From an uncultured Bacilli bacterium (GTDB lineage Bacteria; Bacillota_I; Bacilli_A; RFN20; CAG-826), in assembly GCA_944358985.1 (NCBI GenBank), contig CALVSI010000002.1, forward strand, positions 51,413-115,412: 64,000 nucleotides of DNA. The letters are read 5' to 3'. Below, piece after piece: positions 15,006-26,062 of the stretch (position 1 is the first letter of the stretch; each line of letters opens with the position of its first letter). Made by a program: the position numbers and the translations under genes. The notes beneath the pieces are model-generated. The model ran no database searches, had not been told where the DNA came from, and was given only the letters and a program-made list of their open reading frames with translations.

Positions 15006-15034
15006 TTGACAAAAAAACAAAATAATAGTTTAAT
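15006..15034 (+). promoter_or_regulatory. Candidate sigma-A-type promoter (TTGACA - 17 nt - TTTAAT) for the sipW operon.
   Basis: Sequence read directly. About 95 nt upstream of the ATG at 15131, which has an AAAGGAGAA RBS. Confidence 0.4.
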
Positions 15035-15130
15035 AAAGGTCAGCAGTGTCAAGGGAGCTTGAATATTTTAATAAAAAATCAAGGTTTCCATTTATTATTG
15101 GCACTTAATTAAAAAGGAGAATTTGAAAAA

Positions 15131-15907
15131 ATGAGCAAATCTTACAAAAAAGCGATAACAGTTGGCGTTGCTGCATTTAGCGCGGTTGCACTCTTAACGA
15201 CAGGTACCGCAGCATTTATTTTGGCAACGGAACAAACTAAAACAACAACTGGAAACGTCACAGTTGGACAAGTAGTTGATAACAACATCGTTTTAAAAGT
15301 CAATGCACCAACAAATGAGATTGTTTTTGATGCATCAAGCGGTGATACAACTGGTAAAGTTCAATGGGATGGAACAGATAGTGAGAATTTAACCACTAAA
15401 GTTACTGGCTATGTCTTACCTCAAGAATTTGCCACTGCTTATGATAGTGGAACTACTAGCTTTGATTCTGATTCACAAAGTGCATTAGCGGCTACTCTTG
15501 CTAACTATGATTTATATTGGACATTAACAATTTCCACTGATGGTGCAGAAGAGACTGGTGATAAAGATGCTTTTGAAGGATTAGTTTCTTACTATACTGG
15601 TAATGCTAGCAGTTCAGAAAAACATACCGCATCTAGCGAAGTTGCAGTATTAGATAGCGGCATTTATTATGGTGCTGATTCTAAAAATGTTTTAACTCCA
15701 AATGAAAATGGTGAATTTGAAATTACTCTTTCATTTACTTGGGGAAGTTTATATGGAAATAAGAATCCGTCTGTTTATTTCGATGAAGACTCTCAAGCAA
15801 ATATAGATCATGCTTCCTTAGTTTCTAGTTTAGAAGCTATGAATACACTTGATGGCATCAATTTTGATATTACCATCTATGCAAAATATAAAGCAGCAGG
15901 AAATTAA
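15131..15907 (+). CDS. TasA/camelysin-like secreted protein with a SipW-cognate-type N-terminal signal.
   Basis: 258 aa (TasA is 261 aa). N-terminal K-rich region plus hydrophobic helix, followed by 'TTGTAAFILATEQ', which resembles the 'GGGTWAAFND' cleavage region of TasA. Sits immediately upstream of the SipW-like peptidase. Confidence 0.6.
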   Translation: MSKSYKKAITVGVAAFSAVALLTTGTAAFILATEQTKTTTGNVTVGQVVDNNIVLKVNAPTNEIVFDASSGDTTGKVQWDGTDSENLTTKVTGYVLPQEFATAYDSGTTSFDSDSQSALAATLANYDLYWTLTISTDGAEETGDKDAFEGLVSYYTGNASSSEKHTASSEVAVLDSGIYYGADSKNVLTPNENGEFEITLSFTWGSLYGNKNPSVYFDEDSQANIDHASLVSSLEAMNTLDGINFDITIYAKYKAAGN

Positions 15908-15965
15908 TTAAGATCATTAATAATTAATTATTTAATTTTTTTAAATAATTCGTTAATATAAGTTC

Positions 15966-22528: not shown

Positions 22529-24952
22529 ATGTCAAAAAAATCATTGCCAATATTATTAGTGTTACCTTTTGCAGTTGGCATATTAAGCGTATACGCTGTT
22601 AATTTTAGCGTTAACCTCGTCAGCGAAGACCTTCAAGACATTCAATTTGACTATCGCCAAAATGAAGGATTTATGGTTGATAGTAAAACATTATTAAAAG
22701 CCACTCCAATTGGAAGTGATAAGGCCTTACAAGATTTAGGCAATGTTTTAGTGTGGACTAGTAATGATACTGATATTGCAAATGTTGTCGTAGAAAATGA
22801 TATTTACTATTTAAATGCTCTAAAAGAAGGACAAACAACAATAACTGTTTCAAACGTTAGACAAACAATATCAAAATCATTTAACGCTATTGTGTATAAA
22901 GATGGTGCAATAATAATTAATACAAAAGATCCAATAAGTTCAGCTAGAATTGATAACATTCAATATTATGGTGAATATGATTTTAATGATGATCATCAAA
23001 CCAAAACAAACAAAACGATCGAATTAGATGTGGAAGTATTGCCAAACAATGTTTCTAATAATTTAGTTTTAGATTCAACATCAAATAACGTTTTATATTC
23101 TAACAATACGATATCATTTACTAATATAAAAAATGATGTTGAAGAAGGATATGTTTCTTTTAAATTGTCTAATTCTAATGTTAATTCAACATTTTATTTT
23201 AATATTGTTAAAGATGGCTATAACATTTACGATTATGATGATTTATTGTATTGCACTAATTACTCTTTAGAAGGAAATATTGGGGTTTTGCAAACTAATT
23301 TAGAATCTTTGCAAAATACTTATAAAACACAAGGAGAAGGTAACAATAAAATTTATATTGATGAATATTTAAATGACAATACAAAATTATTTGGAAATTA
23401 TGATTTTAATAAACAAGAATTTAGTTTTGCTGATGAAGTATATAAATTTATAACAACATATAACACCAAATACATTGATGATTTTAATCAAAACCATCCA
23501 AACACTCCAATTAATAAACAATTAATAACTGGTATACATATTCAAAAAGATTTTTATGGGAATGGTTATATCATAAATGGTCATAATCTAACTTACCCCA
23601 CTCAAGTATTTAGCCAAGACGGGACTGAAGTAGTACTTCCAGGCCTAAACAATCTATTCAAAGGACCCCTACCATTTCTCGCACTTGGTGATCCAACGAC
23701 CGAAGGAGTTTTAATTAAAGCTTTTGGGCAAGATAATTCACTTATGTATGTGGAAGGAAACAATATAACATTAAACGATTTAAATATTAGAAATTGTGAT
23801 TTTGGAAATAATTTAAATAATCTAAATTATGTTGGAACCGGGATTGATGTACATGGTGATAACATTACGATTCAAAATTCACAAATACGAAACGCTAAAA
23901 ACAATTTAAGAGTTTATTCCAGCATGAATTTTACTTTAGACAATTCTTTATTAACTAACGCTAGACAATTTCTTTTATCTGTTGGCGTTAACGAATTTGA
24001 AGAAATTGACCATGCTGGTCAAAGCCAAGTTTATGATTTAAATGGCAATTTGATGCAAGTTAATAATGAAGAATATTTTAAACAAGAAGAAAGTGGCCTA
24101 GCGGATACTATATTAATGAACATGGCAACTTATGGTATTCGTGAAAGTGCAAGTTTAAATAATATTTTGCAAGCTCTTAATTCAATGCAAGATGTTTTAA
24201 ATCCAGCATCATTAATATGCGATAGTGATAATAATCCTATTTATAAAAATACTTTGAATATCAATGATACATATTTTTATCAAAGCGGAATCGCGAGTAT
24301 TAGTTTAGAAACAATGTTTAACGGACCATATATTTATAATTCATTACCATCTTTAATTAACTCGTTATTAGGCATTGATGATATATATCATGCTTCTGGT
24401 GTCAATTATCCTAGCCAAGTCGTTTTAAATGGAAACACAAAATTTTATGATTATAAAAATGTTGATTCTATCGATGTATCTTGTATCATCGAACAAAACA
24501 TAGTCGAATGGATTGAGCGGTTAGGAGGAGAAATTGGAGATATTTTTGAAGGATTAAAAATATCAACCGATTTAATGTTCCCCTATCGCACAATTTTAAA
24601 ACAAAACGCATTAGCGATGGGTATTGGCTATGAAGTAAAAAATAATGAATCCACTGATTTATATGTCAATACACCAATTGTTTATTATGGAGGAGGGTTA
24701 AATCTTTCCACTGTTATTGATAATACAAATTCAAGCAATGAATTATCATCTGAAAAAAATATTGATATACTTAATTATTCATTAACAAATATTTCCGGAC
24801 AAGAAATCGGGGATATGGTCGCTAATGTACTATCAAAATGCGTATCTATTGCTATAGGATTTTCACCATTTAAAGTCATGGGATATAAAAATGGTTATTT
24901 ATATGGAGAAACACCAAATATTAATGATTTAAAAAACAATATGGAGGTCTAA
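22529..24952 (+). CDS. Large secreted/anchored right-handed parallel beta-helix (pectate-lyase-fold, PbH1 repeat) protein.
   Basis: 807 aa. N-terminal signal-anchor, then repeats such as 'NIRNCDFGNN...ITIQNSQIRNAKNNLRV...LDNSLLTNARQ' typical of PbH1 coils. Confidence 0.55.
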   Translation: MSKKSLPILLVLPFAVGILSVYAVNFSVNLVSEDLQDIQFDYRQNEGFMVDSKTLLKATPIGSDKALQDLGNVLVWTSNDTDIANVVVENDIYYLNALKEGQTTITVSNVRQTISKSFNAIVYKDGAIIINTKDPISSARIDNIQYYGEYDFNDDHQTKTNKTIELDVEVLPNNVSNNLVLDSTSNNVLYSNNTISFTNIKNDVEEGYVSFKLSNSNVNSTFYFNIVKDGYNIYDYDDLLYCTNYSLEGNIGVLQTNLESLQNTYKTQGEGNNKIYIDEYLNDNTKLFGNYDFNKQEFSFADEVYKFITTYNTKYIDDFNQNHPNTPINKQLITGIHIQKDFYGNGYIINGHNLTYPTQVFSQDGTEVVLPGLNNLFKGPLPFLALGDPTTEGVLIKAFGQDNSLMYVEGNNITLNDLNIRNCDFGNNLNNLNYVGTGIDVHGDNITIQNSQIRNAKNNLRVYSSMNFTLDNSLLTNARQFLLSVGVNEFEEIDHAGQSQVYDLNGNLMQVNNEEYFKQEESGLADTILMNMATYGIRESASLNNILQALNSMQDVLNPASLICDSDNNPIYKNTLNINDTYFYQSGIASISLETMFNGPYIYNSLPSLINSLLGIDDIYHASGVNYPSQVVLNGNTKFYDYKNVDSIDVSCIIEQNIVEWIERLGGEIGDIFEGLKISTDLMFPYRTILKQNALAMGIGYEVKNNESTDLYVNTPIVYYGGGLNLSTVIDNTNSSNELSSEKNIDILNYSLTNISGQEIGDMVANVLSKCVSIAIGFSPFKVMGYKNGYLYGETPNINDLKNNMEV

Positions 24953-24955
24953 AAA

Positions 24956-26062
24956 ATGAAAAAGATTAAAAAACTATTATTAGCGGGATTAGCGCTTCTA
25001 ACTTTTCCTTTATTATCTTTAACGTCTTGTTCAGGATTTTTTAAAACAGATGTTGTCATGATTGAAGATATTGTCGCCACTACTCTTTCTGATGGCAATT
25101 TGCAATTGACAATTACTTTTACTGATGATGCTAGAGATCCAATAACCGTAATAGTGCCGCAAGGTAAACCCGGAAATGGTATTGAAAGTATTACACAAGA
25201 GCCAAATTCCACTAATACAGGGACAATAATAACAATCACATATACCGATGATAATATGGCCCCATTAACTTTTGAAGTAACAAATGGTGTTTCCATTTCA
25301 AACATTGAAGAAACCATCGATCCAGAAACTGGAAATGGAATTTTAAATGTAACTTTATCTAATGGAGAAACATTAACTTTTACTATACCAAAGGGAGAAG
25401 ATGGAAAAGATGGTAATTCCATTACAAATGTCTCGCAAGAAACAGACGAAAATGGAAACATAACACTTACATTTTCTTTCAGTGAAAGAGAAGATTTCAC
25501 TGTTGTTATACCAAGTGGTAAACAAGGCGAACAAGGTGTATCTATTACAAATATCACCCTTGAACAAAAAGGCGATAAATATGTCTTTACTTTTTATTAT
25601 TCAAATGGTTTAGTTCAAACTTTTGATAATATTGATAAACCTGCAACTTGGTTAAGTGGTAATGGAAATCCAAATGATAATAACACTACTGGATATGAAG
25701 GTGATTTTTATTTTGATTTAGCAAGATATAGAATCTATCGACATAACGGCACTAGTTGGGTTTTAATTGCTGATTTAGATGAAACAGGACAAAAAGAAGT
25801 TCACACTGTGACATTTGATTTTAATGATAAAGACGATGGATCAACAGAAGCTATTCTTATAAGTGGTGAGCGTTTATATGAAATTGAAAATGGCCGATAT
25901 TTTGCAAGTTATAGCATGTCGTTACCAATCGTATCAAGAGAAGGTTATGAATTTATGGGTTGGTATTCATCCCCAAATTATAATGTAACAATGGGTACGT
26001 TTACTGATATGACTCCTGTCTATAATGATATAAATTTATACGCACGCTGGAGCAAGAATTAA
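24956..26062 (+). CDS. Lipoprotein with four ~40-aa tandem repeats that each begin with a collagen-like G-X-Y triplet, and a C-terminal Listeria-Bacteroides (Flg_new) repeat.
   Basis: Lipobox 'LTSC'. Repeats 'PQGKPGNGIESIT', 'PKGEDGKDGNSITNVS' and 'PSGKQGEQGVSITNIT'. C-terminal 'GYEFMGWYSSPNYN...INLYARWS'. Confidence 0.6.
   Translation: MKKIKKLLLAGLALLTFPLLSLTSCSGFFKTDVVMIEDIVATTLSDGNLQLTITFTDDARDPITVIVPQGKPGNGIESITQEPNSTNTGTIITITYTDDNMAPLTFEVTNGVSISNIEETIDPETGNGILNVTLSNGETLTFTIPKGEDGKDGNSITNVSQETDENGNITLTFSFSEREDFTVVIPSGKQGEQGVSITNITLEQKGDKYVFTFYYSNGLVQTFDNIDKPATWLSGNGNPNDNNTTGYEGDFYFDLARYRIYRHNGTSWVLIADLDETGQKEVHTVTFDFNDKDDGSTEAILISGERLYEIENGRYFASYSMSLPIVSREGYEFMGWYSSPNYNVTMGTFTDMTPVYNDINLYARWSKN

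Follow-up and report, generated by a model that had tools for sequence, protein, structure and literature searches.

A run of eight genes (g1 to g8) in the genome of an uncultured Bacilli bacterium (RFN20; CAG-826) is interpreted here, with moderate confidence, as a dedicated system that processes surface proteins and assembles them into a variable fibre or array, most probably in the form of a pilus or fibre. The window that was analysed is a 64,000-nt stretch of this genome (GCA_944358985.1, contig CALVSI010000002.1, 51,413-115,412), and all gene positions given below are window positions. A preliminary description of the same DNA had proposed a dedicated secretion, processing and fibre-assembly machine, and this remains the best reading, on the basis of the conservation of the eight genes as a block, a signal peptidase encoded by g2, and an N-terminal signal shared among the candidate substrates.

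A conserved eight-gene block

Species representatives in GTDB were scanned with a g3 alignment, at least 590 matched stretches were confirmed as relatives, and 80 of the genome loci found through g3 were fetched and their open reading frames (ORFs) compared with the eight window proteins by BLASTP. The order g1-g2-g3-g4-g5-g6-g7-g8, with one or two copies of g1, was complete in 47 of the 80 loci at g3 identities of 38-72%, and another 11 loci carried g2 to g8 with a g1 that BLAST left undetected. Most of the loci outside these 47 have incomplete versions, attributed to contig ends or to a g1 too divergent for BLAST, or a changed gene order. Gene order was rearranged in five loci (L064, L072, L074, L078 and L079), which kept most of the families; three of these (L064, L072 and L079) read g4-g8-small-large-g5, the small and large genes both encoding signal-bearing proteins. 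Homologues of g1 with 27-36% identity head the same eight-gene block in other species. Block conservation had been set beforehand as the point on which the preliminary description should stand or fall, and the neighbourhood comparison came out strongly in its favour: g1 to g8 are one conserved functional block, far above chance, with all eight genes in order in more than half of the loci.

The locus is also stable in place. In the same species, 14 metagenome contigs encode an identical g3 protein, and each of them carries the same eight genes and flanks; in related species the block occupies the same chromosomal position beside the same housekeeping neighbours. No g3 relative was found among the viral contigs of IMG/VR, which argues against a phage origin and, together with the fixed position, indicates that the locus is not mobile. 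Carriers form a large clade of low-GC, host-associated Bacilli that are uncultured; their records bear the labels Bacilli, Mollicutes, Acholeplasmatales, Anaeroplasmataceae, Ca. Onthovivens and similar, and come from human, ruminant, horse, rabbit and bird guts. The preliminary description had taken the host for a wall-less organism; this was not supported, and the window contains no decisive gene. RF39 bacteria are predicted to be thin-walled for the most part, and parts of RFN20 and Acholeplasmatales are predicted to be deficient in peptidoglycan (PMC10868615), while the NCBI taxonomy of the named genera of metagenome-assembled genomes (MAGs) was uninformative on the cell wall. As a side observation, one strain of the same species carries an extra AAA_14/DUF4143 gene directly after g8 (L002, 19100-20434) that other strains do not have.

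Within the window, the eight plus-strand ORFs extend from 15131 to 26062 and are all intact under genetic code 11, and the ORF listing bore out the preliminary coordinates exactly for all eight. Spacings from g1 to g8 are 58, -4, 10, 12, -17, 1 and 3 nt, so that the g1-g2 gap is slightly wider than the maximum of 55 nt given before. The strong ribosome-binding sites reported earlier were recovered for six of the eight genes, in that Shine-Dalgarno-like GGAG motifs lie upstream of g1, g3, g4, g6, g7 and g8, but the site of g5 is weak and no such motif was found upstream of g2. The block forms a plus-strand island amid minus-strand housekeeping genes, flanked by genes for CTP synthase, an Fe-S flavodoxin protein, an epimerase and an HI0933-like oxidoreductase, and the sign of the GC skew flips over it. 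Its transcription unit probably ends at a hairpin located 3' of g8 on the plus strand (26260-26285; 9-bp stem with 5 GC pairs), a match to the terminator consensus that was the best and the sole convincing plus-strand site of its kind in a scan of 14-27 kb. A promoter scan returned 111 sites against 100 expected and is uninformative in such AT-rich DNA. Rfam detected no RNA family anywhere within the window, and hence no riboswitch upstream of g1. A polytopic membrane protein without a family match is encoded divergently from g1 (14160-15020, minus strand); it has a counterpart of 238 aa in the same species (L001) and is probably not part of the system, because HipA-like and other genes take its place in L006 and L008.

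The signal peptidase and its candidate substrates

The g2 gene (15966-16964) encodes a signal peptidase I that, judged by its profile matches and motifs, is a true SipW/archaeal-type (S26B) enzyme. It scored 59.8 bits on TIGR02228 (cut-off 51.85) and 65.3 bits on the Bacillus SipW equivalog NF046067, where the cut-off is 190. Over 69 sequences, Clostridia peptidases included, conservation of the GSMS (Ser), HRI (His) and TRGD.N...D boxes is 90% or higher, so that both the SipW-like assignment of the preliminary description and catalytic activity of the enzyme appear well founded. Hydropathy revealed an extra N-terminal transmembrane (TM) helix, a charged loop, the usual anchor and a C-terminal TM helix, followed by a charged cytoplasmic tail of ~90 aa; the extra N-terminal helices announced earlier thus come down to a single one.

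Directly upstream, g1 (15131-15907) encodes a 258-aa secreted protein that is the candidate major subunit of the fibre or surface array. Its N-terminus, which is nearly invariant, consists of KK, ~20 hydrophobic residues and TTGTA/AFILATE, where the slash marks the putative cleavage site. Over 30 homologues, residues 1-33 are 82% identical versus 25% for the remainder. Synonymous changes are present in the DNA of the g1 5' end across species, so that the conservation of the N-terminus is ascribed to purifying selection on the protein and not to recent recombination. The rest of the gene behaves very differently: g1 is the most diverged gene between species (33% identity in the comparison with L006, versus 51-80% for g2 to g8), and its within-species ratios of nonsynonymous to synonymous substitution (dN/dS) were 1.3, 3.8 and 0.8, versus 0.33 or less for g2 and g6 to g8. 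The higher, scattered ratios of g4 and g5 are based on very few substitutions, and that of g3 is zero by construction, as the contigs were found through identical g3. In the mature protein, the N-terminal strand (AFILATE…GNVTVG.V.D) and the C-terminal strand are conserved, while the middle is variable; such a pattern is typical of exposed filament subunits.

Two AF2 models of g1 were obtained. The first, of the full-length protein with 33 mostly close homologues, reached a pLDDT of only 59, and Foldseek returned nothing usable for it. The second, of mature g1 with 64 diverse sequences, reached a pLDDT of 76 and a pTM of 0.74 and predicts a beta-sandwich with helices in which the first 13 residues are disordered. 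By eye, the signal of g1 is laid out like that of TasA (KK…GTA/AF in g1, KKK…TWA/AF in TasA). An hhalign comparison of the g1 family with TasA aligned the signal peptide only, at 1% probability. The relation is one of likeness in layout and not of shown membership, as far as the sequences allow it to be judged.

The signal of g1 recurs on other proteins of the same genome. The window ORFs, 21,761 aa in all, contain four occurrences of the motif G-x-[AS]-[AS]-[WFY]-[IVLM], of which three are N-terminal, namely in g1 and in two adjacent minus-strand genes located 13 kb from the operon. One of these, g9 (42293-42970), encodes a 225-aa protein with the same N-terminal signal class (…ISGGFASFLIGYDD) and is a candidate minor subunit; the other, g10 (39230-42289), encodes 1019 aa, again with this class of signal (…SIGQAAWIVYGD), and is a candidate large adhesin or tip protein. 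Neither contains a Pfam domain. In hhalign, g9 aligned to the g1 family with 85% probability (E 6e-6) over the signal and first strand, and g10 over the signal only.

In related genomes, proteins with this signal are encoded at the operon itself. The signal, with the consensus …VGFA(A/S)WVIS…, heads one to four genes of 200-330 aa upstream of g2 in 44 of 60 loci, and a pair (~205-246 aa and 610-700 aa) directly after g8 often has it too. In other genomes, a g9 counterpart follows g8 directly or lies in the interval from g8 to g5. g10 gave BLASTP matches (1e-7 to 1e-56) to large signal-bearing proteins flanking or within the operon, and loci with such g10-like large proteins are L011, L016, L019, L020, L036, L037, L049, L051 and L056; in L064, L072 and L079, a small and a large signal-bearing gene lie as a pair inside the operon, between g8 and g5. 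About ten gene families with several substrates, that is, the major subunit, small paralogues and a large protein, thus make up the system, and since the counterparts of g9 and g10 lie inside or beside the operon elsewhere, it is split over two loci in the window genome. The cognate signal-peptide class …G-F-A-A/S-W-V/I… is, on comparison of these N-termini, a new one that TIGR04088 misses.

Several further genes were noted around these loci. Very large proteins (1181-1560 aa) are encoded beside the operon in L010 (2747-7429) and upstream of it in L049, L056 and L077; those of the latter three carry the same signal and the 1560-aa protein of L010 has Flg_new repeats, which suggests lineage-specific giant adhesins. 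In the window, g10 is directly followed on the minus strand by a gene for a 718-aa secreted protein with Endonuclease_1 and Big_2 domains (36921-39077), and further downstream by one for an SPFH/Band-7 protein (35948-36904). A minus-strand series of genes for lipoprotein-like products, whose lipobox is followed by Ser/Thr-rich linkers (29067-35892), includes two alpha-amylase/pullulanase-type enzymes of 849 and 1006 aa and suggests surface-anchored starch degradation. Finally, three successive plus-strand genes (44479-48210), the last of which encodes a 496-aa protein that resembles a Wzx/MurJ-type flippase (judged by eye from its N-terminus), could represent a surface-glycan locus.

The membrane McrBC-like pair and the surface module

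The product of g3 (16961-18781) consists of an N-terminal region with ~4 TM helices, an acidic linker and an AAA+ nucleoside triphosphatase (NTPase) of the McrB family (residues ~270-606). It matched AAA_5 at 22.8 bits, just above the cut-off of 22. When a profile of the C-terminal 345 residues was used, the top PDB matches were structures of E. coli McrB (6hz4, 6ut6 and 7vsr; E 2e-7), and the aligned region takes in Walker A (GxxGxGK), a Walker B of the DExNRA type (hhhDExNR) and the Asn signature, N(K/T)(D/A)D. Invariant in the g3 family are Walker A (GLSGTGKS), Walker B (LDE.NI.R.EYYFA), TANKDDST, VYDR in the Arg region, and GNR. On these motifs, the NTPase appears to be McrB-type, not MoxR-type, and looks catalytically competent. 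Of the ATPase sketched in the preliminary description (McrB/MoxR-type AAA_5 with a 5-TM anchor), the membrane anchoring and the AAA_5 type were retained, while MoxR and the fifth helix were not.

The proposed topology of g3, with ~4 TM helices and a cytoplasmic NTPase, is based on ~4 hydrophobic segments in residues 1-170 and on the positive-inside rule, because the N-terminus is positively charged, a K-rich stretch follows the last segment and the NTPase should be cytoplasmic; the acidic linker measures ~30 aa. A profile of the N-terminal domain gave no PDB match below E 0.2, and no McrB DNA-binding domain was found there. A likeness of TM3-TM4 and the linker to FlhB (8z5s, E 8e-5), seen with the full-length profile, was lost with a 40-sequence profile of the TM domain and was discarded as compositional.

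An exhaustive search for g3 relatives returned 7,633 clusters (50% identity) at E <=1e-3 and 681 at E <=1e-30. About 12 of the top 150 relatives align over the full length and the others share residues 240-606 behind different N-termini, with the NTPase domain being 40-50% identical to many shorter relatives. Four relatives were inspected, of which P0254 has one TM helix and then, by eye, an apparent coiled coil, and three have multi-TM N-termini. The N-terminus of a 1-TM relative gave no BLASTP alignment with E. coli FtsB, and g3 itself had no match to the Pfam models for FtsB/DivIC.

The g4 gene (18792-20171) encodes a McrC-like partner with an N-terminal DUF2357 domain, an unconserved middle devoid of nuclease motifs and a C-terminal C4 zinc ribbon. 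DUF2357 (PF09823) was matched by 22 of 39 g4 orthologues with a best E of 2e-11; the window copy itself is below detection and aligns to the orthologues through a conserved W…PE…YENR block. W104, P113 and E129/N130 (YENRF) are invariant in the N-domain, as are four C-terminal Cys, and several orthologues match zinc-ribbon models, in agreement with the zinc-ribbon partner of the preliminary description. Over the 39 orthologues no nuclease family was matched, and alignment columns 300-500 contain no conserved acidic/Lys motif. Taken together, these profile and motif data identify g3-g4 as a membrane-anchored McrBC pair with no detectable nuclease and, given a partner made of DUF2357 and a zinc ribbon, not as a restriction enzyme.

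The remaining four genes encode a transporter and two surface proteins. g5 (20184-20948) is an ATP-binding cassette (ABC) transporter ATPase of the DrrA/ABC-2 exporter type (ABC_tran, 2.8e-27; TIGR01188 drrA, 1e-52 but below cut-off) with 49-80% identity across loci, and g6 (20932-22527) is a 531-aa polytopic ABC-2-type permease with many hydrophobic segments. Among 37 g6 orthologues, six matched ABC_tran_2 (PF16949), six matched ABC2_membrane_4 and none matched EcsB (PF05975), so that the EcsA/EcsB-like pair suggested earlier had to be given up in favour of ABC-2/ABC_tran_2 permease families. g7 (22529-24952) encodes an 807-aa surface protein with an N-terminal hydrophobic anchor or signal (one TM segment) and a region of right-handed beta-helix; Beta_helix (PF13229) was matched by 5 of 39 orthologues (3e-5), consistent with the beta-helix surface protein described before, and no PDB relative was found by sequence. 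g8 (24956-26062) encodes a lipoprotein that has three short beta-rich repeats and carries, at its C-terminus, a Listeria-Bacteroides repeat (Flg_new, 6e-7; TIGR02543 also matched). Its lipobox, LTSC in the window, is present in 49 of 52 orthologues, and to this extent the preliminary collagen-like repeat lipoprotein was upheld. The G..G..G.[ST][IV] pattern behind the collagen comparison occurs as two or three triplets in the window copy but with a median of 0 copies in orthologues, and does not characterise the family; nor did Tandem Repeats Finder detect any real repeat array in g8.

Proposed fibre assembly, rival readings and known systems

In the proposed fibre system, g1 with its paralogues, g9 and g10 would be the substrates and share one signal (K/R-rich, ~20 hydrophobic residues, then G-F/T-A-A/S-W/F-V/I). 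They would be inserted through Sec and cleaved by g2, probably after small residues at -3/-1 (GTA/AF in g1). The conserved mature N-terminus and C-terminal strand of g1 could then act as assembly interfaces, as in the donor-strand fibres of TasA/BsaA, while its exposed middle would diversify under host or phage pressure. On the cytoplasmic side, g3, presumably a hexamer with ~4 TM helices per subunit, and the McrC-like plug g4 may carry out NTP-driven work or gating. This could consist in controlling the peptidase g2 through its cytoplasmic loop and tail, or in extracting subunits and handing them over in a manner akin to the hexameric ATPase and platform of type IV pili. The g5/g6 transporter, g7 and g8 would be a lineage-specific outer part serving as anchor, base or exporter of a co-factor. 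Small paralogues accompanied by one large protein mirror the major/minor/tip composition of pili.

A bolder version of this proposal is put forward only tentatively: the locus might encode a new energy-coupled fibre pathway, in which a membrane hexameric McrB-type GTPase and a nuclease-less McrC plug, both recruited from restriction enzymes, drive or gate the processing and polymerisation of donor-strand subunits. If true, this would be a new kind of pilus assembly machine, widespread in uncultured gut Bacilli and displaying a rapidly diversifying antigen.

Several observations weigh against fibre assembly. The TasA/camelysin-like nature and the SipW-cognate signal that the preliminary description had assigned to g1 did not hold: g1 had no match in Pfam or NCBIfam at E <=0.1, so that membership of the TasA, BsaA or camelysin families is not shown, and TIGR04088 matched 0 of 11 N-termini (g1 and ten diverse family members, at E up to 10), while a TasA control scored 514 bits on NF046066 and 38 bits on TIGR04088 (cut-off 19). 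A cleaved signal would also free the subunits from the membrane and make an extraction motor unnecessary. Fibres of the TasA, ABP and thread types are not known to need an NTPase, which leaves the role proposed for g3/g4 without precedent. In addition, g3 matched the PADLOC defence-candidate profile PDC-M26A (6e-37), and the NxD clade of McrB, to which its signature motif may point, is otherwise discussed in terms of CoCoNuT-like conflict systems (PMC11090510).

These points bear on three other readings, none of which I consider likely. The strongest of them, which is still rather unlikely, is a sorting or secretion system for surface proteins that form no filament. Here the signal would single out proteins that are to be cleaved by g2 and either anchored, to the membrane or a lipid, or released, with g3/g4 and the ABC transporter performing quality control or clearing signal peptides and mis-inserted substrates, in a logic that would be analogous to the cognate-signal systems of sortase/exosortase type. 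The wide size range of the signal-bearing proteins (205-330, 600-1000 and up to 1550 aa), the conserved catalytic motifs of g2 and the presence of an ABC exporter in the operon all suit this idea, as does the fact that g1 has not been placed in any fibre family. It accounts less well for the conserved terminal strands and variable middle of g1, which point to subunit-subunit interfaces, and for the set of small paralogues and one large protein that resembles a pilus with its major, minor and tip components; moreover, models of EcsB-type permeases for signal-peptide clearance found no match.

An anti-phage or conflict system derived from McrBC is less probable again. The membrane McrB/McrC pair would sense infection, for example as membrane injection or damage to a surface receptor, and trigger an effector (membrane- or ABC-mediated abortive infection), with the hypervariable g1 acting as receptor or decoy. 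The PDC-M26A match, the apparent grouping of the NTPase with NxD-type McrB homologues and the diversifying evolution of g1 speak for such a system. However, no component of PDC-M26 other than PDC-M26A was matched in the operon, the other PADLOC matches being to generic ABC ATPases only, and a literature search on PDC-M26 found nothing. g4 and the neighbouring genes contain no nuclease or recognisable toxin, and the tight coupling to a signal peptidase and its substrates would be unexpected. Unlike patchy defence islands, the locus is fixed among housekeeping genes and inherited with the species, in at least 590 matched stretches, and it is absent from viral contigs (IMG/VR). Finally, it is very improbable that independent modules, i.e. 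a secreted protein with its peptidase, a degenerate McrBC remnant, an ABC transporter and surface proteins, are merely juxtaposed by chance. Stand-alone relatives of each module do exist elsewhere and the promoter scan is compatible with internal promoters, but the reading frames overlap or nearly abut, strong purifying selection acts on the enzymatic motifs of g2 and g3, and the whole set is kept down to about 33-40% g3 identity, so that synteny already largely refutes this reading; most of the set even survives the rearrangement that places substrate genes between g8 and g5.

Fibre assembly, if correct, would be of interest beyond this locus. For fibres of the TasA, ABP and thread types, assembly machinery is not known and polymerisation is assumed to be spontaneous; with a conserved operon in which an NTPase is coupled to such subunits and their peptidase, the question of fibre assembly would become testable. 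It would also show that the motor of McrBC restriction was recruited for a membrane or envelope function. About 680 clusters (50% identity) carry this type of NTPase, mostly from human and animal gut MAGs of poorly understood Bacilli with reduced genomes. Because the main substrate, g1, is the fastest-evolving gene of the locus, it probably helps to determine how the host immune system recognises these commensals, their adhesion or the adsorption of phage, and the new signal class should be useful for annotating the surface proteomes of these lineages.

Compared with known systems, the locus is neither a TasA operon nor an EcsAB system. With type IV pili and type II secretion it shares a logic only, in that subunits with a common N-terminal hydrophobic signal are combined with a dedicated peptidase, a hexameric cytoplasmic NTPase (here presumed) and a polytopic platform. 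No component is homologous: the NTPase is McrB-type and not PilB/GspE, and the signal is a classical one with a C-terminal cleavage motif instead of a class III prepilin leader. Subunits of the TasA/BsaA families assemble by donor-strand exchange and are encoded beside SipW genes (PMC9674648; PMC11580942), as in TasA-SipW-TapA of Bacillus subtilis and SipW-BsaA-BsaB-BsaC of Clostridium perfringens. In contrast to these, g1 goes undetected by the TasA, BsaA, camelysin and TIGR04088 models and g2 falls far below the Bacillus SipW equivalog cut-off, and the TasA/Bsa operons contain no NTPase, McrC-like protein or ABC transporter and rely on energy-free polymerisation (PMC9674648). A mention of McrB in the C. 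perfringens Bsa paper turned out to refer to an E. coli genotype only (PMC11580942). The likeness to E. coli McrBC lies in the AAA+ NTPase core of g3, in the McrC N-terminal domain that plugs the McrB hexamer (g4) and in the adjacency and order of the two genes; the differences are that TM helices replace the DNA-binding N-domain in g3, that g4 has a zinc ribbon and no PD-(D/E)xK nuclease, and that the pair is embedded in an operon for secretion and surface proteins.

The closest published counterpart is the CoCoPALM class, a name given to McrBC systems linked to signal peptidases in three sentences without gene lists (Bell et al. 2024, eLife 13:RP94800; PMC11090510). These authors described a McrB branch in which the signature is shortened to NxD, as a rule with E or D after it, and deferred its treatment to a later paper (PMC11090510); a literature search found no later work on CoCoPALM. 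The authors of this McrBC census had, independently, linked such systems to pilus assembly (PMC11090510). Shared with CoCoPALM are the McrB-type NTPase, the membrane-anchoring N-terminus, the DUF2357 McrC partner and the linkage to a signal peptidase: g2 abuts g3 in the window with a 4-nt overlap, and the two are adjacent in ~60 loci. Counted up to the Ser, the invariant N-K-D-D-S-T of g3 has one residue fewer than NTADRS, and it agrees with NxD plus a following D, while HMMER aligns N-K-D-D without a gap, as NxxD, to the NTAD of E. coli McrB.

The same four-part core appears in distant Clostridia loci (L081-L090), in which BLASTP with the window proteins detected only the NTPase and sometimes the peptidase. 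Inspection of seven of them revealed proteins with a …YAWF… signal, one or two S24/S26-type peptidases, a McrB with 1-2 TM helices and a long DUF2357 protein, not all parts being present in every locus. The McrC-like proteins of the L081-L090 clusters reach 1417 aa, and in one locus (L090, 10356-12650) the cluster is followed by a gene for a GGDEF-EAL (cyclic di-GMP, c-di-GMP) protein, which hints at c-di-GMP control of the related Clostridia systems.

The window operon differs from the CoCoPALM description in having ~4 TM helices in g3 where an FtsB-like single TM helix and coiled coil were described, in that long coiled coils are not evident in either partner, and in its additional ABC-2 transporter, beta-helix protein, lipoprotein and GFAAW-type substrate signal. 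The statement in the preliminary description that this is not a described system therefore needs to be qualified, since the link between peptidase and McrBC had already been named CoCoPALM (PMC11090510), and holds in so far as the variant is distinct and uncharacterised. From its gene content and motifs, the window operon is best regarded as a distinct variant, with extensions, of this class that has been named but not characterised, and what lies beyond the published description and models is the signal class that TIGR04088 misses, the 4-TM McrB, the nuclease-less zinc-ribbon McrC, the ABC and surface module, and the hypervariable substrate.

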